A stretch of DNA of 64,000 nucleotides from the sequence record NC_111505.1; one strand, written 5' to 3'. This DNA comes from a phage. Positions 13,345 to 25,491 of the stretch are shown piece after piece. Position 1 is the first letter of the stretch. Every line of letters begins with the position of its first letter. The notes under the pieces are model-generated. The model was not told where the DNA came from, made no database searches, and was given only the letters and a program-made list of their open reading frames with translations. The translations under genes were made by a program, and so were the position numbers.

Positions 13345-13683
13345 CTACTGAAGGTCTTCAGAGTCAAGCTCAAAAAGAATCAAACTGTGCATGTTTGCAG
13401 AGAGCTCAACACACTCCGCAACGACAAGGGTCTGATAGTAAGGTTCAGCACCCTCGATGTCTTCGTTAAAATCCACAACAAGGTAGTCACCTTTGTTAAA
13501 GGTGTATTTGTCAGATGTAAACGCAAACCCTGCCCAGTCCCCTACAGGGTCTTTATCGATCACCTTTGTTAGCAGGAGGTCTTTTTCACGAGATCTTTTA
13601 GTAAAATCGTGAATCACAACAGCCTTCTCTTCAGGATTTGGATTTCCACACACGTAGTTAACTATATTTCTCCACAAACTCAT
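13345..13683 (-). CDS. hypothetical protein
   Basis: 112-aa ORF overlapping the helicase stop by 4 nt. Confidence 0.45.
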   Translation of the reverse strand: MSLWRNIVNYVCGNPNPEEKAVVIHDFTKRSREKDLLLTKVIDKDPVGDWAGFAFTSDKYTFNKGDYLVVDFNEDIEGAEPYYQTLVVAECVELSANMHSLILFELDSEDLQ

Positions 13684-15050
13684 ACGTCCCCCTTTTCTGC
13701 TCTAGTTTCAAAATCTTTCCTGACTTTCTCGTCTAAGCCAGGGAAAGTTGTATTATAAAACTCTACGACTCGCGGGTCAACAATAATATCCACCTCTCTT
13801 AATGGACGCAACAAGTTTATTCCCTGTATCGTCTTAACCCGACTCAAGGCAACATACGTCATTCCTGGAGAGAAAGCTCCGTTCTTTCCAAGGTCCAGGT
13901 TGTAACAATCTAGCGTAAGTCCTTGACTTTTATGCGATGTTACTGCGTACCCCGATTTCAAAGGGAGTTGCTCATAAGACCCGATCACAACCCTCTCTAT
14001 GAACTTCTCCATCTTCCTTTCGGCAATATTGTACCTCTGGGAAGGTTTGTACTCGTTATTCTCCCACAATCTCGGCTCAATTTCAACCTGTGTCCCGTCT
14101 TCTAGCTCAACTACCACGGATTTAGTCTTGAATTTTACCACTGTGGCACGTGTCCCGTTGACATAATACGGAACTTTGTGAGTAGGGTCAACATCGTTTG
14201 AGGTTATCATAACCTTCATCCCTATCTTCAGCCTCATTTCCTGCTCCACAGGCAGTGTGGAAGGGAACTTACCCTTCATTTTACCAATGTAGGTCTTCTC
14301 TGGGGCCTGGATGGCATCATAGAAACGTCTGTTCACCTCCTCTGCTTGCTTATTGGTGGCGCAGATAGTCAAGGCATCTGTTGGGACACCGCCATGATAG
14401 CAACGAGTGTTAAGCTCTGCTACAACCTCTTTTATGCGACGACCTTCACGAACACAGTTCAACATTGTGGCGAAGCGAACAGATTCCTGACGGAACTGGT
14501 CTACTAAGGCTATATTGTGAAGATTAAGATCCTCCCAAGATTCTGTATAGCAACACAAATCTGTGTGGTAGAAGTTGAAGTAGGCTTCTTTCTCCATGGA
14601 AGAGACAACTGGAGGTGCTTGGTAGAAATCTCCAAACAATAACACCTGAATGCCTCCGAAAGGTTTGTCATTTTTCCGAAGAAAGCGGAGTTTTCTGTCC
14701 ATCTCTATGAACTTGTCAGCACGGATCATAGAGATTTCATCGATAATTAGGATGGTAAATGCCTTGCTTTTCAGAGGCTTTGCTGTTTTTGCCCTTATTG
14801 CTGTCCAGTCTGACTCCATGCTCACACCTGCGGCAAGATCGAAAGTTCGGTGTGCTGTTGCTCCATTAACGTTTAAAGCGGCTACCCCTGTCGGGGCAAC
14901 CGTTATGCAAGAGTCTCCATACATGGACTGGATCATGTTGATAAGATATGTCTTCCCGGTTCCACCAGGTCCACTTACGAAGACATTCTCACCACTCATG
15001 ATTGCAACAAGGGCAGCATCTGTGCCTACATCGTACTGCCCTTTCTCCAT
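13680..15050 (-). CDS. SF1 DNA helicase, Dda/RecD/Pif1-like
   Basis: Walker A VSGPGGTGKTY; ITVAPTGVAA; Walker B IIDEISMI; C-terminal TYVALSRVK motif. Confidence 0.75.
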   Translation of the reverse strand: MEKGQYDVGTDAALVAIMSGENVFVSGPGGTGKTYLINMIQSMYGDSCITVAPTGVAALNVNGATAHRTFDLAAGVSMESDWTAIRAKTAKPLKSKAFTILIIDEISMIRADKFIEMDRKLRFLRKNDKPFGGIQVLLFGDFYQAPPVVSSMEKEAYFNFYHTDLCCYTESWEDLNLHNIALVDQFRQESVRFATMLNCVREGRRIKEVVAELNTRCYHGGVPTDALTICATNKQAEEVNRRFYDAIQAPEKTYIGKMKGKFPSTLPVEQEMRLKIGMKVMITSNDVDPTHKVPYYVNGTRATVVKFKTKSVVVELEDGTQVEIEPRLWENNEYKPSQRYNIAERKMEKFIERVVIGSYEQLPLKSGYAVTSHKSQGLTLDCYNLDLGKNGAFSPGMTYVALSRVKTIQGINLLRPLREVDIIVDPRVVEFYNTTFPGLDEKVRKDFETRAEKGDV

Positions 15051-19184: not shown

Positions 19185-20369
19185 TCAAGCTTTAGCTAAA
19201 ATGGCGCTAAACTCTTCACCAAACTCTTTTACAATCTTCATCAGGTTTGGGTATGCTTTGATCAGCTGAGCAACGATCTTGTCCCGGCCTTTACCAATAA
19301 GTAAGGCATTTCCTAGGGCGTTGGGTTTCATCATCGCCATAAAGACTGAGAATACAAAGTCTCGGTTCTCATCCTTGAAATTTTCCCAAAGGAAATCAAG
19401 GAAGTTTGCCACGCAGCTAACAAGATCTTCGTCTGAGACACTTGCATTTTCCATCATATTCCGAATAGCAATACAACCTTCAGACCCAAGAATCCACAAA
19501 ATATCTGGCTGCTTAGGACCTACATACTCTTTGCAACCCCCTGCCATAATCCGACCGATTTCTGGCAAGTTTCGTTTCTTGGTGTGGTAGGTCCAGATTT
19601 CTACCGCTGCAGTGTGACCAATAGCACCTTGCAGAAGAACACGAGCCATAGCGTCAGAAATAATACCGCTGTCAAAATCGTGCAGGATGTCAGATGCAGC
19701 AACCCAAGATCGCGGTGTAGCAAAAGATGGACAATTAATCTCAGCCATAGCCTCATAATTATCGATAGCTGATGGAACTCTTTTCAGATATCCAATTACA
19801 GAGGAATGCACACCATTAAGGAATGCGTAGTCCTCAATAAATACCTCTGCACTGCTTGTAACTTCTACAATGATAAAGCGGTTAGCCAGAGGGGCTTCGA
19901 GCGCTGAAAGAACAGCACCATCCGTAGCACGGTTACCTGCAGCTACAAAAACAGAGCCCTTAGGAAATGCATAGGTGCCGCACTTGTGGTCGAGCATAAT
20001 TTGCATTGCAACCTTCTGCAGGTAGTTATCTGCATGAGTAAGCTCATCCAGAAAGATAATTCCGCTCCAGTCCGAGTCTGCAGGCCAAAATTCTGGAATT
20101 GCAAACACTGTGCGTGTAGTTCCATCTGCCTCTACAGGGATAGGTAGTCCAGACAAGTCAGCAGGATCTTTATCTGACAGCCGCACGTCAACCAGGTTGT
20201 CATCTCGCTCACCGAACATATTATCAGCAATCTGCTTCATCACCTGGCTCTTCCCCACACCCATCGGTCCTAAAATCAGGACAGATCGGTTATGACGCTG
20301 GGCAAATTGAATAATAGCTGGCAACTCGCGGACAGTGATTTGACCACTTTCGAATACGTTTCTTGACAT
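19185..20369 (-). CDS. MoxR-like AAA+ ATPase (CbbQ/CobS-like)
   Basis: Walker A GPMGVGKSQ; Walker B IIFLDELTHA; 394 aa. Confidence 0.7.
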   Translation of the reverse strand: MSRNVFESGQITVRELPAIIQFAQRHNRSVLILGPMGVGKSQVMKQIADNMFGERDDNLVDVRLSDKDPADLSGLPIPVEADGTTRTVFAIPEFWPADSDWSGIIFLDELTHADNYLQKVAMQIMLDHKCGTYAFPKGSVFVAAGNRATDGAVLSALEAPLANRFIIVEVTSSAEVFIEDYAFLNGVHSSVIGYLKRVPSAIDNYEAMAEINCPSFATPRSWVAASDILHDFDSGIISDAMARVLLQGAIGHTAAVEIWTYHTKKRNLPEIGRIMAGGCKEYVGPKQPDILWILGSEGCIAIRNMMENASVSDEDLVSCVANFLDFLWENFKDENRDFVFSVFMAMMKPNALGNALLIGKGRDKIVAQLIKAYPNLMKIVKEFGEEFSAILAKA

Positions 20370-20638
20370 TAGTAAAAGTCCTCTACTTGTGTGTAAGTGT
20401 TTTCAAAGTTTTCCAAAACAGACATCACATCGGATCTGTCAATATCATACGCAACTCTCCAGCCATATGCAACCCTTTCTGCTGTTGCCTCTTCTGGATC
20501 TAGTCGTCTGCTGGCATGAAAGAGTGTTGGAGTACACTTTCTTGCTTGCCCTCTAACTTTCCCATAATAATATCTGTGAATATCTTTGTCAAAATTTAAT
20601 TCTTTTTCTGCACGAAGTTCGTACTGCTGGTATAACAT
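20369..20638 (-). CDS. hypothetical protein
   Basis: 89-aa ORF. Confidence 0.45.
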   Translation of the reverse strand: MLYQQYELRAEKELNFDKDIHRYYYGKVRGQARKCTPTLFHASRRLDPEEATAERVAYGWRVAYDIDRSDVMSVLENFENTYTQVEDFY

Positions 20639-20682
20639 CTCTACTGCTCCTTAAGCAGCATCCTTGCCGCCATCCCTACCCA

Positions 20683-21063
20683 CTAAAATGCAGTCCGAAT
20701 CCAGACAAGGTTCTTATCTGCCCAATCATAAAGGCAAGTCATTGCACTATTGAATTGCTCACACGGAGGGTAATCTTCTTCCATCCGGCGCATAGCGGAT
20801 CCTTGTGGGTATAACTCCAGTGCTGCAAACCACGCATCGTAGTCATCCACGGTGTCGAAGTAGTATACAACATCCTCCAACTCAGGATCGAACTTTGAAC
20901 TATCAGGATCCAGTTGTTCAGGGAACTTGGAGCGTAACTTGCCAGCCACAATACTTGCCAACTCGCTAACATGCTTGTTGTCCCACTCTACCAGTTTCCC
21001 GTCTTCAGTTATGCGTCCTAACCACTGATCATGAAGGTCAACTGTTGTCTTCCACTGGGCCAT
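20683..21063 (-). CDS. hypothetical protein
   Basis: 126-aa ORF. Confidence 0.45.
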   Translation of the reverse strand: MAQWKTTVDLHDQWLGRITEDGKLVEWDNKHVSELASIVAGKLRSKFPEQLDPDSSKFDPELEDVVYYFDTVDDYDAWFAALELYPQGSAMRRMEEDYPPCEQFNSAMTCLYDWADKNLVWIRTAF

Positions 21064-21065
21064 TA

Positions 21066-21323
21066 TCAGTCTACCTCTTCTTCTCGTTGCAGTTCAAGAT
21101 ACCCATAGGTCTGGATATCTTCAAGGGTGTGGAACTCCCCATCTGCAGCTAAGGCACGGACAACCTGGCATAGAGTTTTATAAGGTACTTTCTCCAAACC
21201 CAGATTCAGCGCAGGAAAAACCTTATCTAAGTCAACAAAATATACAAACTGTAGCTCACCAGTTTCAAAAGGCGTATCTTCGATAAACATCTTCTCGGCA
21301 TTAGTCAAGATCTGCACTTTCAT
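21066..21323 (-). CDS. hypothetical protein
   Basis: 85-aa ORF. Confidence 0.45.
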   Translation of the reverse strand: MKVQILTNAEKMFIEDTPFETGELQFVYFVDLDKVFPALNLGLEKVPYKTLCQVVRALAADGEFHTLEDIQTYGYLELQREEEVD

Positions 21324-21553
21324 TCTTCTACCCCCTCTTCTTTTTCTTCAGCATTAGTTTCAGTGCTACCCCACTCTGGAGTTTCCACCTCGACAGTAAA
21401 CTCACGCACTACACGGTAATTGCCCATGAAGCGCTCCACTTCTTCAAGGCTTATGGAGAGGCCATTGGCAACCAAGTCTGCAGCACCCTTCTCTACCAGG
21501 TAGTCCAGATTGGCTTCCAAGGCTTCAGGCTCAAACCCTGTCAATGCAATCAT
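21320..21553 (-). CDS. hypothetical acidic protein
   Basis: start set at internal ATG (MIALTG...) overlapping the stop of the upstream small ORF; track start is TTG. Confidence 0.4.
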   Translation of the reverse strand: MIALTGFEPEALEANLDYLVEKGAADLVANGLSISLEEVERFMGNYRVVREFTVEVETPEWGSTETNAEEKEEGVEE

Positions 21554-21678
21554 ATAACCCTCCCCTTCATCAAGGAGGGCAATACAGCCCAACTGATTTT
21601 CTTTAAAAAGCAGTGACCATCACTATTGATTGGTTGCTCATTGCAGTAAATAGCTGCACGATAAGTAACTTTAGACAT
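21550..21678 (-). CDS. candidate small protein (42 aa), not in ORF track
   Basis: ATG preceded by AAGGAGG with 7-nt spacer; stop overlaps the next start (ATGA); MSKVTYRAAIYCNEQPINSDGHC... Confidence 0.35.
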   Translation of the reverse strand: MSKVTYRAAIYCNEQPINSDGHCFLKKISWAVLPSLMKGRVI

Positions 21679-21690
21679 TGGTAGGCCTCC

Positions 21691-21969
21691 TTAGGCAACT
21701 GTCATTTTACATTCTTGAAATTTTAACACAAGACGGTGATTGTGTCTAGTGTCTAAAAAGATTTTTTCAACCATCAGGCACACGGTATAACCGTCCGTCT
21801 TGTTGACAACAAAATCCCCAGGGTGAGGGAGAATGTCTCTGGGGTTGGGGAAACATAACCCGCTCAAGAAGGCATCATCGGTGGTGGACTTGATGGATTT
21901 CCACACACTATCTGCCTGAACATTCTCACCAACATAATATACACTACCACATACCTTCATCATAGTCAA
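21691..21969 (-). CDS. hypothetical protein
   Basis: 92-aa ORF. Confidence 0.45.
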   Translation of the reverse strand: MTMMKVCGSVYYVGENVQADSVWKSIKSTTDDAFLSGLCFPNPRDILPHPGDFVVNKTDGYTVCLMVEKIFLDTRHNHRLVLKFQECKMTVA

Positions 21970-22865
21970 ATCTCCGCGTAAATTAAACTGGAATCAGTAT
22001 ACTTCTTTAACGGGTAAATATCCTGTCCATAGATGCCGTCATTAAACACCTCATCTACCCAAAGGCTACACTTATATCCCATCATCTCTAAAACACCCAT
22101 CTCTTCTTCGGTAAACTTATCACCGCTCTTGCAAGATGTCAACACCTCATTCTGTACTCTTGCTACCTCGAAGCGGTTATTGGCAATATCACTATTGGCA
22201 ATCAAATACTCACCTAAAGGGTGTGCAGCATTAAAGATGCACAGTGGACGGTTGACGTAATAGTCCCCCGGTGTATAAAAATTGTTGAGATCCTTCACCA
22301 GAACATTCTTATCAGTCACTTCATTTATAACATCATGCATATCACACATCTTTATATGTTTGAGGATTCCATCCCCCATCACAAAATAAAAACTTGCTGA
22401 GACACTCTCGGCATAGATCTTACTAGATCCATTGTAGTTGTATTTTACGCGAATGCTTACAGGGGTTTTGCCTGTCGCGTTAGCCATCATCCAAAGGAAC
22501 GGAAGTTCAAACTTCTCCTCTGAGGAAACAAAAGGTGAAGTTGCCAGAGATCGGAAACCACCAGAGAAGTTGAAAGTTACAGAGCCGCTCCGGCGATATG
22601 ATACCGCATATTCTACTTTTATATCGACATAGCCGTTGGAGTAAGTGTGGCCTCCATTATCCAGATATGTCCACTTATCAGATCCGGATACCAACCTACG
22701 CTCAATCACCTTCATTACTACAGGAATTAGCGGGTTGGTACAAACCGATTTTGAAGTAGCTTTATCATCCAAAGCCTCGTAAATTGCAGAAAGGATATCG
22801 CCTGCTGAGAGATTGGTTGTGATATCTTGTTTCCACCGAGTGCTAAAGCTGTTAAGATTTGCCAT
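21966..22865 (-). CDS. hypothetical protein
   Basis: start at internal ATG (MANLNSF) with AGGAG upstream; first gene of the minus-strand early block. Confidence 0.5.
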   Translation of the reverse strand: MANLNSFSTRWKQDITTNLSAGDILSAIYEALDDKATSKSVCTNPLIPVVMKVIERRLVSGSDKWTYLDNGGHTYSNGYVDIKVEYAVSYRRSGSVTFNFSGGFRSLATSPFVSSEEKFELPFLWMMANATGKTPVSIRVKYNYNGSSKIYAESVSASFYFVMGDGILKHIKMCDMHDVINEVTDKNVLVKDLNNFYTPGDYYVNRPLCIFNAAHPLGEYLIANSDIANNRFEVARVQNEVLTSCKSGDKFTEEEMGVLEMMGYKCSLWVDEVFNDGIYGQDIYPLKKYTDSSLIYAEI

Positions 22866-22905
22866 GATTAAGTGCTCCTGTGTTCGTTTTCTTTCGAATG
22901 GGTGC

Positions 22906-22934
22906 ACTATATCGTGGATTTAGAGTAAAGTCAA
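22906..22934 (-). promoter_or_regulatory. sigma70-like promoter (TTGACT-17-TATAGT)
   Basis: minus-strand -35 and -10 with 17-nt spacer, about 35 nt upstream of ATG 22865, in the divergent intergenic region. Confidence 0.5.
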
Positions 22935-22947
22935 CACGTTTTTGAGG

Positions 22948-22976
22948 TTGACATCTGTTGAGGCACTTGATAAGAT
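22948..22976 (+). promoter_or_regulatory. sigma70-like promoter (TTGACA-17-TAAGAT)
   Basis: perfect -35 hexamer, 17-nt spacer, 4/6 -10; drives the plus-strand island. Confidence 0.5.
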
Positions 22977-23007
22977 TTCTTCACCTACAGAGCACAAGAG
23001 ACAACTC

Positions 23008-23997
23008 ATGAATCTTGAAAAATATTATACACCAGAAGAGTTAGAGCGCCTGCTCAAAAAATACAGACGCAAACAAAATAATGCACGGAAACGAGATATA
23101 GAGTTCAACCTGTCATGGGAAGAATACCTCCTATTTGGTAAAAAACTTTTAGGAGAGGGGGTGTGCGACTATACCCTTATACCTTTCGACATGCACACAG
23201 ATGAAAACGGACTGGGAAATCCTTTCTACCCCTCCCTAGAGCGGATAGATGATGAAGGTCCTTATGCTGTTGATAATTGTTGTGTGGTGGGATTGAGATG
23301 CAACTCTCTAAAGGACTGTCTGGTAGATAAAAAGACCGCAGTCTTGATTAAAGACAAAACTGATCGAAAAATTGTCCAGCAGATGATGCTCCACCTGAGC
23401 GAAGAGCGTATGGAGAAATTGAAAGGTGATTACACTTTTGAAGATTTCATCTTGCAATATGGAACGGAAGAGGATAAACTGGCACTCTTTGACGAAGAAT
23501 GGGAGGAAGATATGTCACCAATGCAGGATTTTAAAAACTTCATGGCTAATCGTGGAGCCAACAAGCACATTTCTGACATCGTAAATGAGCCTGTAACAGA
23601 AGAGATTGAAGAAATGATGCAACAGGATCACGAAGAGGAAAAAGAGCCTCAAAAGGTCGAAGAAGAGCTTACAGAAGAGGTTCCTGCACTGCCTGACGAT
23701 GTTGAGATTGCTAAAGCCTATACTTTCTATTGCCAGACGTTCTACGATGCAGGCATGAAAGTCGATCTGTCATTCAGCCAATTTAAGAGCACGTACATTC
23801 GAAAATGCTGTGCTTTAACTGGCGAGCGTTTCGGGGCCGGACTTAAACCGTTATTAGTGACCGACTGGAATAAAGGTTTCACCAAAGGTAACTTTATGGT
23901 AGTATCTCCGATCATGGAGAAGGCTATGACAGACCTTATGAAGACCACTCGCATGACAATGACCGAGTTGGCTGGTATTTTCAAGCACGTTAAATAA
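23008..23997 (+). CDS. hypothetical protein with internal repeat module and long acidic tract
   Basis: start at ATG 23008 (track start is TTG); two related modules (RKRDIEFNLSWEEY...C.YT and VDLSFSQFKSTYIRKCCALTGERF) flank a D/E-rich stretch; first gene after the promoter. Confidence 0.5.
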   Translation: MNLEKYYTPEELERLLKKYRRKQNNARKRDIEFNLSWEEYLLFGKKLLGEGVCDYTLIPFDMHTDENGLGNPFYPSLERIDDEGPYAVDNCCVVGLRCNSLKDCLVDKKTAVLIKDKTDRKIVQQMMLHLSEERMEKLKGDYTFEDFILQYGTEEDKLALFDEEWEEDMSPMQDFKNFMANRGANKHISDIVNEPVTEEIEEMMQQDHEEEKEPQKVEEELTEEVPALPDDVEIAKAYTFYCQTFYDAGMKVDLSFSQFKSTYIRKCCALTGERFGAGLKPLLVTDWNKGFTKGNFMVVSPIMEKAMTDLMKTTRMTMTELAGIFKHVK

Positions 23998-24001
23998 TGA
24001 C

Positions 24002-24018
24002 AGGGGCCAATGGCCCCT
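24002..24018 (+). promoter_or_regulatory. intergenic hairpin (AGGGGCC-AAT-GGCCCCT)
   Basis: perfect 7-bp inverted repeat right after the stop at 23997; the same stem is reused in the 29.75-kb terminator. Confidence 0.35.
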
Positions 24019-24030
24019 TCTGGAGTTTTA

Positions 24031-25491
24031 ATGGATAGCAGAAGTTCAGAAATCATTGCCGCACAAAAAGATGACGCCTTGCGAATGCTGCAGGCAGCAC
24101 GTATGTATCTTCTTGAAAAACTGCCGTTTTATGGCACACTGTTGTCAGGGTTGCAGTTCGTAGAAAACCACACATGGTGCTCCACCATGGCAACAGATCA
24201 TAAACGCATTTATTACAGTCCTGAGTTCGTTATGGGATTGGCTGATGAGCGCAAAACCATTCTTGAGGCATCTTTAACTGACAAGCAGTTTGAGATGGCT
24301 GAGGTTTTCTATTCCCCCAAATCTGTGAAAGAGGTGGCATTTCTTCTATCACATGAGGTGGGGCATATTATCTGTGATCATCTGGTCCGTGGCAAAAGCT
24401 TTGAGCCGGAACTGTTCAATATTGCCTGTGATCATGTTATCAACACAGGTCTTGTGGTTGACTTTAGCAAGCCCCCTTGTGTTTTCTTCCCGAAGGGGAA
24501 AAGCACTACGTTTGTAAAAGGTAAGCCTTTTGGCTTTTTAGCTAGTTGCTACTGTGACATGAGGTTCCATGGATGGATTGCTGAGAACGTCTATGCTGTT
24601 CTTGATAAGCAAAGAGATCAGAATAGCGGTAAAAGTAAGAACGGTAAAGGCGAGAACTCTCAAGGAGATAAACGACAAACCGATGATCACATGAGTGGTA
24701 ACGGTGGCACTAGTGATGATCTTGGAAAGGCTATGGGGTATGATCAGCCACAGCCAGTGATCAGTCAATCTGATAAAGATCAAGCCATGCAGGACTCTGG
24801 TGACATGTTGGAAGCAGCAATGCAGGCTTCCGGAGGTAGTTGCCCTGAGGCTGTGCGCGAGTTTGTCAAAAACAGAGGTAAGCCTGTAATCAATTATATA
24901 GACATCATTAAGCAACGTATGTTGTCCAAACGAAAGGCTGAACTAACCTACAGAAAACCAGGTCGCCGATCTGGGTCTTTGACCAGCACAATGCGAAAAG
25001 TTGGAGCTATAAACAAGAATCAGCACGTTGTTGTTCCTGGCCGTAATCCGGAAAACACTATAGATATTGTGGTGGCTTTAGACGTTTCTGGGTCGATCTC
25101 GCAAAGAACTTTAAAGAAAATGTTCAATGAGATCACTGGGTTGTGCAATCTGTATAAAGAGTTCAAGGTTACGATGTTCTGTTGGTCAACTGAGGTTGGA
25201 GAGGTTAAAGTATACACTCGCGGGAACATCGACGAGATGATCAACTATGAGGTCCACTCAACATGGGGAACAACAGCCGCTTGCGTGTTCGAGTATCTGG
25301 ACGCTAACATACCAAATGCAAAAGATGTCATCGTCCTGACCGACCTATACTTTGAGCATAACTTTGAACAAAAGGCTGTTGACAACAAGTGGAAAAAGTA
25401 CGATACTTTATGGGTTCTCACCGAAGGGTATAATAAAAATTATATCCCTAGCTTTGGGAAAACTGTAGAATTGATCGAGTACGCTAAATAA
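24031..25491 (+). CDS. VWA-domain protein with N-terminal HExxH metallopeptidase-like domain
   Basis: HEVGHIICDH zinc-binding-like motif; MIDAS-like VVALDVSGSIS; start set at ATG 24031 (GGAG upstream) after the hairpin. Confidence 0.65.
   Translation: MDSRSSEIIAAQKDDALRMLQAARMYLLEKLPFYGTLLSGLQFVENHTWCSTMATDHKRIYYSPEFVMGLADERKTILEASLTDKQFEMAEVFYSPKSVKEVAFLLSHEVGHIICDHLVRGKSFEPELFNIACDHVINTGLVVDFSKPPCVFFPKGKSTTFVKGKPFGFLASCYCDMRFHGWIAENVYAVLDKQRDQNSGKSKNGKGENSQGDKRQTDDHMSGNGGTSDDLGKAMGYDQPQPVISQSDKDQAMQDSGDMLEAAMQASGGSCPEAVREFVKNRGKPVINYIDIIKQRMLSKRKAELTYRKPGRRSGSLTSTMRKVGAINKNQHVVVPGRNPENTIDIVVALDVSGSISQRTLKKMFNEITGLCNLYKEFKVTMFCWSTEVGEVKVYTRGNIDEMINYEVHSTWGTTAACVFEYLDANIPNAKDVIVLTDLYFEHNFEQKAVDNKWKKYDTLWVLTEGYNKNYIPSFGKTVELIEYAK

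Follow-up and report, generated by a model that had tools for sequence, protein, structure and literature searches.

The closest described relatives of the gene pair discussed here, a MoxR-class AAA+ ATPase and a VWA protein with an N-terminal metallopeptidase-like domain of the DUF2201 family, are found in tailed phages. The pair is encoded between positions 19,185 and 25,491 of sequence record NC_111505.1, a 64,000-nt stretch of phage DNA called the window below. In phage N4, gp24 (ATPase) and gp25 (vWFA) belong to the same two families and lie in the middle-gene region near rIIA. Both are middle genes and count among the 14 genes forming the core set in N4-like phages (Schitoviridae) (PMC4193335). 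In jumbo phages, Iyer et al. (2021) described a MoxR AAA+ ATPase together with a vWA protein carrying an N-terminal metallopeptidase domain, and, drawing on the Acidianus two-tailed virus (ATV) as an analogue, suggested that it functions in virion assembly and proteolytic processing (PMC7824862). The viral pair of ATV consists of p618 (MoxR) and p892 (VWA), of which the latter is linked to tail development outside the cell (cited in both PMC7159879 and PMC7824862). A near-identical counterpart of the pair is encoded by the Vequintavirus Bas54 (Escherichia phage MaxBurger), which was analysed by transposon-insertion sequencing (HIDEN-SEQ) in a 2025 preprint that is not peer reviewed (10.1101/2025.11.20.689424).

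Among other MoxR/VWA pairs, NorQ/NorD and CbbQ/CbbO (CbbQ/GvpN/NorQ subfamily) provide the best structural matches to the ATPase. Their VWA partners also have a metal ion-dependent adhesion site (MIDAS) and a flexible linker. However, NorD and CbbO lack a peptidase domain, and their role is to insert metal or to reactivate Rubisco. Cryo-electron microscopy of NorQD showed that the MoxR hexamer docks the VWA domain via a pore finger and the C-terminus of the partner, and that the helix-2 insert of NorQ grips the VWA finger. Rotation driven by ATP twists the linker between the domains of the partner and stretches it, and the target is remodelled (PMC13036017). CobS/CobT likewise consists of an AAA+ protein and a VWA protein, but CobT lacks an HExxH domain. 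A MoxR-vWA core is also found in biological conflict, in the ternary systems of Kaur et al. (2020). These are cellular defence systems with effector domains and an obligatory third component (VMAP, iSTAND, FtsH or a beta-propeller) (PMC7159879).

The window adds no new kind of system to this list. Its pair is of a known kind in a well-sequenced genus, and the sole local peculiarity is a derived split of the two genes across a divergent promoter region. The new point is a functional prediction, namely that the VWA-peptidase joins the ATPase against the defence family DS-28, which published raw data support and which was previously unstated. In the reading favoured here, which we consider probable though well short of certain, the pair is a non-essential, ATP-driven remodelling or protease machine used in counter-defence and split by a rearrangement.

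With 97-98% identity to E. coli phage FV3, the window is assigned to a Vequintavirus genome, i.e., an "rV5-like" phage. The 6.6-kb region around the pair matched 121 phage records at 90-99% identity, the best being FV3 and Vequintavirus relatives, and 114 of these near-identical records span the whole region. Records named Campylobacter phage among the matches are of the same genome type. The genes of Bas53 JohannBauhin, VB-EcoM-WM, Bas50 and Bas54 have already been named "MoxR ATPase" and "putative metallopeptidase". Bas54 shows no difference of substance from the window: it has the same split layout and the same 142-bp divergent region, and its proteins bas54_0063 and bas54_0055 are 99% and 98% identical to the ATPase and its partner, respectively. 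The N4 proteins are more distant (27% identity for the ATPase, 21% for the VWA protein) and shorter, lacking both the insertion by the HExxH helix that is typical of Vequintavirinae and the C-terminal extension of the ATPase. In addition, the N4 genes are adjacent and co-directional, whereas those of the window are split and divergent. The jumbo-phage pair has the same architecture, with 25-28% identity for both proteins in RaK2-like and other jumbo phages. Unlike in the window, its genes are adjacent and in intact order where both coordinates were seen (EC22.5-2). The 892-aa p892 of ATV matches the partner structurally at the level of the VWA domain (E 8e-6) but has no zincin domain. Compared to the ternary conflict systems, the pair of the window has no third conserved gene, matches bpMoxR below threshold and stands on the phage side. 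An assignment to a known defence system was rejected, as no PADLOC match beyond P-loop noise was obtained. A literature search on DUF2201 and rV5-like MoxR found nothing useful, and the paper on CRISPRi-ART, an RNA-targeting knockdown screen, holds no data on the ATPase or VWA-peptidase gene.

Both open reading frames (ORFs) lie where the original prediction had placed them. Chance is not an issue for either gene call, since thousands of homologues back them. The ATPase belongs to the minus-strand block, and a plus-strand island of about 6.7 kb (23008 to ~29700) has the VWA gene in second place; ORFs, strand switch and GC skew agree on this predicted placement. The strand switch is real: the sign of the GC skew flips twice, near 22 kb and near 30 kb, so that the island also appears as a GC-skew inversion. 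The two genes are 3.66 kb apart, close to the 4 kb first given, and seven annotated genes lie between them. These had been described as small, which does not hold for two of the seven, encoding proteins of about 300-330 aa.

Several lines of comparative evidence indicate that the ATPase and the VWA-peptidase are a cognate pair, and their physical interaction is presumed. Eighty viral loci around ATPase homologues were scanned with a DUF2201 profile, and 69 of them had room downstream. In 66 of the 69, a DUF2201 gene follows directly on the same strand, with a median frame-to-frame gap of about 75 nt; two of the three remaining loci have the rV5-like split layout. The ATPase-then-DUF2201 order is found in N4 gp24/gp25, in the Aeromonas Plateaulakevirus, in phage-like contigs and in the chromosome of Sulfurivermis fontis. 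A genome scan with the ATPase alignment located 53 further loci with the pair in cells, mostly in metagenome-assembled genomes of Campylobacterota. Most cellular homologues share this gene order. The expectation that the MoxR ATPase acts with a VWA partner is thus well matched by gene order, and the clade of the ATPase is one whose genes adjoin DUF2201 genes rather than one without a VWA partner. Five of the 53 cellular loci (L117, L119, L136, L149 and L164, from Sulfurimonas, Sulfuricurvum and Arcobacteraceae) hold two complete pairs separated by 4-6 kb, which indicates that the module is duplicated as a whole. A tandem ATPase arrangement in cells was considered and rejected, the true signal being the two whole pairs at these five loci.

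Of 50,697 phage records searched with tblastn, 821 contained the ATPase and 727 the partner, and the counts per host genus were nearly identical. Pairwise identities of the two proteins correlate with r=0.97 (mirror-tree, Mantel p<=0.001), which is weak evidence because any vertically co-inherited genes would correlate. A third conserved gene was looked for as well. The ORFs flanking the pair in the window have no homologues beside the pair in Cronobacter phage CR8, 2L372X, L010, N4 or the metagenomic phages, and no flanking cluster exceeds 10 of the 53 cellular loci. Not every ATPase homologue has a DUF2201 neighbour: the genes of a Sulfurovum sub-lineage (e.g., L092) adjoin ArsB and CorA transporter genes instead.

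The adjacent order is kept in phage CR8 (Certrevirus), which belongs to the same subfamily, Vequintavirinae, and in the 146-kb metagenomic relative L010. The split is therefore derived, having arisen in the lineage leading to Vequintavirus and Seunavirus. Only this lineage has it, and there it persists down to about 43-53% protein identity without loss of any catalytic residue.

The ATPase is of the MoxR class, within the helix-2-insert clade, by fold, motifs and transitive homology. In a Foldseek search with its AlphaFold model (mean pLDDT, i.e., predicted local distance difference test, of 85), the top 17 matches were NorQ, CbbQ2 and CHU_0153 (E 4e-8 to 3e-6); MCM, Clp, McrB and RuvB ranked lower. 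Identity to NorQ and CbbQ is 15-21% at the sequence level, and the ATPase has no CbbQ_C match. With a profile built from 39 homologues, the AAA domains of Midasin were matched at 8e-12. Homologues number in the thousands, and those at 31-35% identity contain AAA_3 (the MoxR family proper) and AAA_5 (PF07726/PF07728) and sometimes bpMoxR. The cellular homologue L092, with 42% identity, passes the AAA_3 cut-off (35.4 bits, cut-off 27). The window ATPase itself gave no AAA_3 match in the Pfam search, and single-sequence searches of Pfam, NCBIfam and PDB returned sub-threshold P-loop matches only (Clp, sigma54, AAA_14).

The Walker motifs are intact (Table 1). Judging from their positions in the AAA+ fold, N146 is the putative sensor 1, R164 the putative arginine finger (PLANRF) and R220 the putative sensor 2 (ATPRSW), and all three are invariant in 39-41 homologues. 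The model also contains a predicted helix-2-insert beta-hairpin, which by analogy with NorQ may grip the VWA partner, and a pre-sensor-1 hairpin consisting of a short strand pair (residues 129-134) before the sensor-1 strand.

The partner belongs to DUF2201, a family described as "predicted metal-dependent peptidase" (DUF2201_N, PF13203, and DUF2201, PF09967). It matches DUF2201_N ("putative metallopeptidase domain") with 97.9 bits (1e-27, cut-off 23.2) and, C-terminal to it, DUF2201 ("VWA-like domain") with 44 bits (2.8e-11, cut-off 26.4) in Pfam. The profile searches suggested at the outset were hence positive for this protein, and the proposed likeness to MoxR/DUF2201 pairs is confirmed. 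The likeness to CobS/CobT, suggested in the same breath, is not: CobS/CobT was rejected, as no CobS_N, CbbQ_C, CobT or CobT_C match was found in Pfam or NCBIfam, even at E up to 10 on sub-domains. CobT-like viral proteins match the partner weakly in structure, via the VWA domain. Structural relatives over the whole length are found in N4-like phages, Bacillus phage PBS1, cyanophage S-TIM5 and crAss-like viruses. The partner family is very large, with 14,774 representatives at 50% clustering (E <= 1e-30).

The predicted model of the partner (pLDDT 82.7) consists of an N-terminal zincin-like domain, a flexible linker, a helical region and a C-terminal VWA domain. The HExxH motif noted earlier is present as HEVGH, followed by a further histidine five residues later, and the DxSxS motif is present as well. 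D134 is likewise invariant in 43-45 homologues, which reach down to about 20% identity. E109 is the putative catalytic glutamate, and weak matches to M48, BepA, HtpX and MJ1213 centre on the HExxH helix. The N-terminal domain would accordingly be classed as a zincin-type metallopeptidase, with peptidase activity predicted from the motif. Residues 203-227 of the linker have pLDDT values below 50. In the VWA domain, the MIDAS set D351, S353, S355, T414 and D438 is invariant in 43-45 homologues. G476 within a C-terminal [FW]G motif is invariant too.

In proteins of the Vequintavirinae type, two helices made up of about 30-45 inserted residues directly precede the HExxH helix. This insertion is not present in N4-like, metagenomic or cellular DUF2201 homologues and could be a lineage-specific substrate-recognition element.

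The longest ORF of the VWA gene is 24010-25491(+). The ATG at 24010, however, falls in the loop of the hairpin at 24002-24018, while a GGAG stands 7 nt upstream of the ATG at 24031, which is equivalent to the annotated start in relatives. On these grounds, 24031 is almost certainly the real start. The hairpin could act in attenuation, RNA processing or RNA stability. On the plus strand, the stem-loop AGGGGCCAATGGCCCCT is followed by TCTGGAGTTTT, which contains the ribosome-binding site. A BFVD match, the 81-aa B3RGF2 of Escherichia phage V5, shares 98% identity with a portion of the VWA protein. It appears to be all that the original rV5 record annotates of this gene, which suggests a frameshift or a fragmented call there.

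The annotation of DUF2201 proteins is inconsistent. PHROG 1314 and many GenBank and RefSeq records, including RefSeq N4, label them "HNH endonuclease" (e.g., N4 gp25 at L007 4953-6095, FFH2 and 2L372X gp050), and "anti-sigma factor", "DNA repair ATPase" and "gp25-like" are used as well. As no HNH domain is detectable, the HNH label is apparently a propagated mis-annotation. It conceals the MoxR/VWA pairing in many records.

The functional evidence comes from the HIDEN-SEQ data on Bas54 (10.1101/2025.11.20.689424). On E. coli K-12, both genes were classified as "Non-essential", with insertions at 60 of 64 TA sites in bas54_0063 (ATPase) and at 81 of 86 in bas54_0055 (peptidase). The comparison used here is that of the uropathogenic strain CFE311, which is the DS-28 host, against K-12. 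On CFE311, bas54_0063 was completely depleted (log2 fold change, log2FC, of -7.23, q=0). In the supplementary table, bas54_0055 is depleted as well (log2FC -2.20, p=0.0009, q=0.00896). The seven genes between the two (bas54_0056 to bas54_0062) were all non-significant, and bas54_0055 is the only significantly depleted gene of its island. The text of the preprint is silent on this depletion and on its link to the ATPase eight genes away. In plaque assays reported in the same study (10.1101/2025.11.20.689424), knockouts of bas54_0063, and of the unrelated bas54_0140, were specifically sensitive to the cloned two-gene DS-28, a small uncharacterised plasmid-borne family. Deletion followed by plaque assays on defence-bearing hosts, as proposed in the original prediction, has been carried out by others in this way for an ATPase 99% identical to that of the window, covering the ATPase part. 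The statement that the function of such pairs is unknown is consequently partly out of date, the Bas54 ATPase being reported as needed against DS-28.

Two further observations were made in these data. Extended Data Table 8 "Data S6", titled resampling_K-12_vs_CFE303, holds the CFE311 console line and numbers and is identical to sheet S7. The helicase bas54_0068, non-essential on K-12, was almost completely depleted on CFE311 (log2FC -6.32, q=0), and the text of the preprint is silent on it.

The moderate depletion of bas54_0055 suggests that the VWA-peptidase participates in the DS-28 phenotype, and the presence of the partner in the depleted set is supportive, not decisive. An accessory role directed at the host or its defences is likely. 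Since the genes are dispensable on K-12 and needed against DS-28, the target is most likely a defence protein or other host protein rather than a virion component.

The ancestral form is a two-gene cassette, ATPase then VWA-peptidase. A rearrangement in the Vequintavirus/Seunavirus lineage put the ATPase into the minus-strand early block and the peptidase into the plus-strand island. As both genes lie downstream of one divergent sigma70-type region, host RNA polymerase could still co-express them early. Elements matching those of NorQD are present in the phage proteins: the ATPase has helix-2 inserts, and in the partner the MIDAS is intact, the linker is flexible, the C-terminal [FW]G strand is invariant and a complete zincin site stands where NorD has its N-terminal domain. 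By analogy with NorQ/NorD and CbbQ/CbbO, the ATPase would form a hexamer and dock the VWA domain, and the MIDAS would capture a carboxylate of the target protein. ATP hydrolysis would twist and stretch the linker, remodelling the target, which would be presented to the zincin domain, or the zincin domain would be unmasked, and the target cleaved. A more specific version is offered tentatively, and we hold it to be doubtful: the split pair may act as one protease machine, whose MIDAS captures DS-28A/B or a host factor that these need, whose MoxR ring unfolds or twists it, and whose zincin cuts it.

Several points weigh against the counter-defence machine. The CFE311 table lists 21 significantly depleted and 6 enriched among ~229 features, so the partner would fall among the depleted ones in about 10% of cases by chance. 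Its depletion is about 4.6-fold compared to complete loss of the ATPase, CFE311 differs from K-12 in far more than DS-28, and the counter-defence genes named by the preprint are bas54_0063 and bas54_0140, not the peptidase (10.1101/2025.11.20.689424). The pair is present in more than 700 phage genomes and is part of the N4-like core. Such universal conservation would be odd for a counter to one rare plasmid system, and it suggests a more general primary role. At the protein level, the predicted VWA domain is compact (~residues 340-486, ~150 aa), with no evident 45-residue insertion like the long "finger" of NorD, so the docking mode may differ. The ATPase itself stays below the Pfam gathering thresholds for AAA_5 (17.0 bits, cut-off 22), a family the original prediction had named, and for bpMoxR (15.7 bits, cut-off 27). 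Its MoxR-class membership hence rests on transitive homology and fold. Finally, the promoters between the genes are recognised by consensus match, and sigma70-like matches over 7 kb were not above chance (15 versus 12.1 +/- 3.6 expected from shuffled sequence), so that it is position and conservation that support them.

Some of these points would fit a functional uncoupling after the split. The ATPase would then act without the VWA-peptidase, for instance with bas54_0140, and the role of the peptidase would be unrelated or vestigial. Indeed, the preprint (10.1101/2025.11.20.689424) groups the ATPase with bas54_0140 and not with the peptidase, the effect sizes differ strongly (-7.23 versus -2.20), the genes are on different transcripts, and some cellular ATPase homologues of the Sulfurovum type have no adjacent DUF2201 gene. 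Yet both genes keep intact catalytic residues down to 43-53% identity and are retained in 114 of the 121 near-identical records, the two proteins co-diverge, and the pair duplicates as a pair. Within its island, the peptidase alone is significantly depleted on the DS-28 host (q=0.009). Uncoupling is consequently judged unlikely.

A general host-takeover protease acting on a conserved host protein is given the same low weight. The effect on DS-28 would be indirect, for example if DS-28 senses or needs that protein. Core-gene status in N4-like phages, the very large family, the early/middle genomic position and the occurrence across unrelated phage families and in cyanophage, Bacillus and crAss-like viruses would all agree with it. 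Loss of the genes from Bas54, however, has no detectable fitness cost on K-12. Moreover, host takeover overlaps with the counter-defence machine and differs from it only in the directness of the DS-28 effect.

It is improbable that the pair is a chaperone for metal-cofactor insertion of the CobS/CobT, NorQ/NorD or CbbQ/CbbO type, in which HExxH binds metal without cleavage. NorQ and CbbQ are the closest solved folds of the ATPase, the MIDAS is intact, and CobS/CobT had been suggested from the start. But the domains diagnostic of CobS/CobT and CbbQ were missing, CobT-like viral proteins match weakly via VWA, and hydrolysis is favoured over metal insertion because the HExxH glutamate is kept in every homologue. 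In addition, no conserved metalloenzyme gene lies beside the pair in any lineage examined, and the pair is non-essential while ribonucleotide reductase genes were important in the Bas54 screen.

A chaperone-protease for virion assembly or maturation, with the zincin processing structural proteins, was proposed for the homologous jumbo-phage pair (PMC7824862) and has a precedent in the MoxR/VWA pair of ATV (PMC7824862, PMC7159879), whose ORF892 is a weak VWA structural match (E 8e-6), but it is equally improbable here. In Bas54, insertions were tolerated at 94% of the TA sites of both genes, fitness on K-12 was unimpaired, and structural genes had zero insertions. The genes of rV5-likes, N4 and metagenomic phages lie in early/middle regions by rIIA/rIIB, helicase and nucleotide-metabolism genes, outside the structural modules. 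The cassette also turns up in chromosomes outside prophages.

Few unexplained gene pairs of tailed phages are as widespread as the MoxR/DUF2201 cassettes, which number ~15,000 clusters at 50% identity in public data. The N4-like phages and the rV5-like subfamily have them as core genes, jumbo phages and cyanophages also contain them, and their role has so far been guessed. A "conserved hypothetical pair" becomes a testable lead once the ancestral adjacency is combined with the intact catalytic sites and with the depletion of the peptidase gene, on which no remark had been made. If a counter-defence protease holds true, N4 gp24/gp25 and their thousands of relatives would be the first MoxR-VWA system shown on the virus side, and the core status of the cassette in Schitoviridae and Vequintavirinae would be explained.

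Table 1 Features in and around the split MoxR/DUF2201 pair (positions of the window)
Feature	Position	Strand	Remarks
MoxR-class AAA+ ATPase, 394 aa	19185..20369	-	PHROG 1297 at 4e-110; orthologue of Bas54 bas54_0063
Walker A GPMGVGKS (G34-S41)	20247..20270	-	G37, G39, K40 and S41 invariant in 39-41 homologues
Predicted helix-2-insert beta-hairpin, residues 75-90	20100..20147	-	DSSP: strands 75-81 and 84-90 directly after helix 69-73
Walker B D108-E109	20043..20048	-	Invariant in 39-41 homologues
DUF2201 VWA-zincin protein, 486 aa	24031..25491	+	PHROG 1314 at 3.5e-122; orthologue of Bas54 bas54_0055
Two-helix insertion, residues ~68-98	24232-24324	+	Vequintavirinae type
Putative zinc site HEVGHIICDH (H108, E109, H112, H117)	24352..24381	+	Invariant in 43-45 homologues
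Low-complexity Gly/Ser/Asp/Gln/Lys-rich linker, ~residues 195-245	24613..24765	+	Length differs between homologues
VWA domain with complete MIDAS	25048..25488	+	D351-x-S353-x-S355 (25081-25095), T414, D438
Divergent intergenic region, 142 bp	22866..23007		Flanking starts set to those annotated in relatives
Minus sigma70-like site TTGACT-17-TATAGT	22934-22906	-	10/12
Plus sigma70-like site TTGACA-17-TAAGAT	22948-22976	+	10/12; extended-10 TG
GC-rich stem-loop AGGGGCCAATGGCCCCT, perfect 7-bp stem	24002..24018	+	Between upstream stop and VWA start
First plus-island gene, "anti-sigma factor" in relatives	23008..23997	+	Upstream of VWA gene
Gene labelled "putative alpha 1-3 fucosyltransferase" in relatives	21966-22865	-	PHROG 12338, function-unknown
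89-aa ORF	20369..20638	-	PHROG 13164; stop overlaps ATPase start (TAATG)
DNA helicase (Bas54 bas54_0068)	13680-15050	-	Four genes from ATPase

The divergent promoter region expected between the two genes was found. It is the only real intergenic gap there and contains one candidate sigma70-like promoter per strand (Table 1). The two sites are back to back, each correctly upstream of its first gene, and their hexamers are invariant in five Vequintaviruses. Their activity and timing are predicted from the consensus match. The relative L009, with ~46-53% protein identity, has an 11/12 sigma70-like site upstream of the equivalent operon.

As for the neighbouring genes, the 89-aa ORF upstream of the ATPase has no homologue adjoining the ATPase in CR8, 2L372X, L009, L010 or N4. 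It is genus-specific and probably translationally coupled with the ATPase. Its PHROG family is labelled "ATPase", and the protein is without a recognisable P-loop. The gene on the minus-strand side of the divergent region (21966-22865) had no Pfam, NCBIfam or PADLOC match, so these libraries lend its "fucosyltransferase" label no support. Likewise without a Pfam or NCBIfam match, the gene that opens the plus-strand island is a member of PHROG 3118 ("HNH endonuclease") and matches the PHROGs of Srd anti-sigma, sigma70-decoy and endonuclease VII less strongly. Its Bas54 equivalent is non-essential and unaffected on CFE311. In Seunavirus-like relatives (L009, L090), this gene accompanies the VWA gene.

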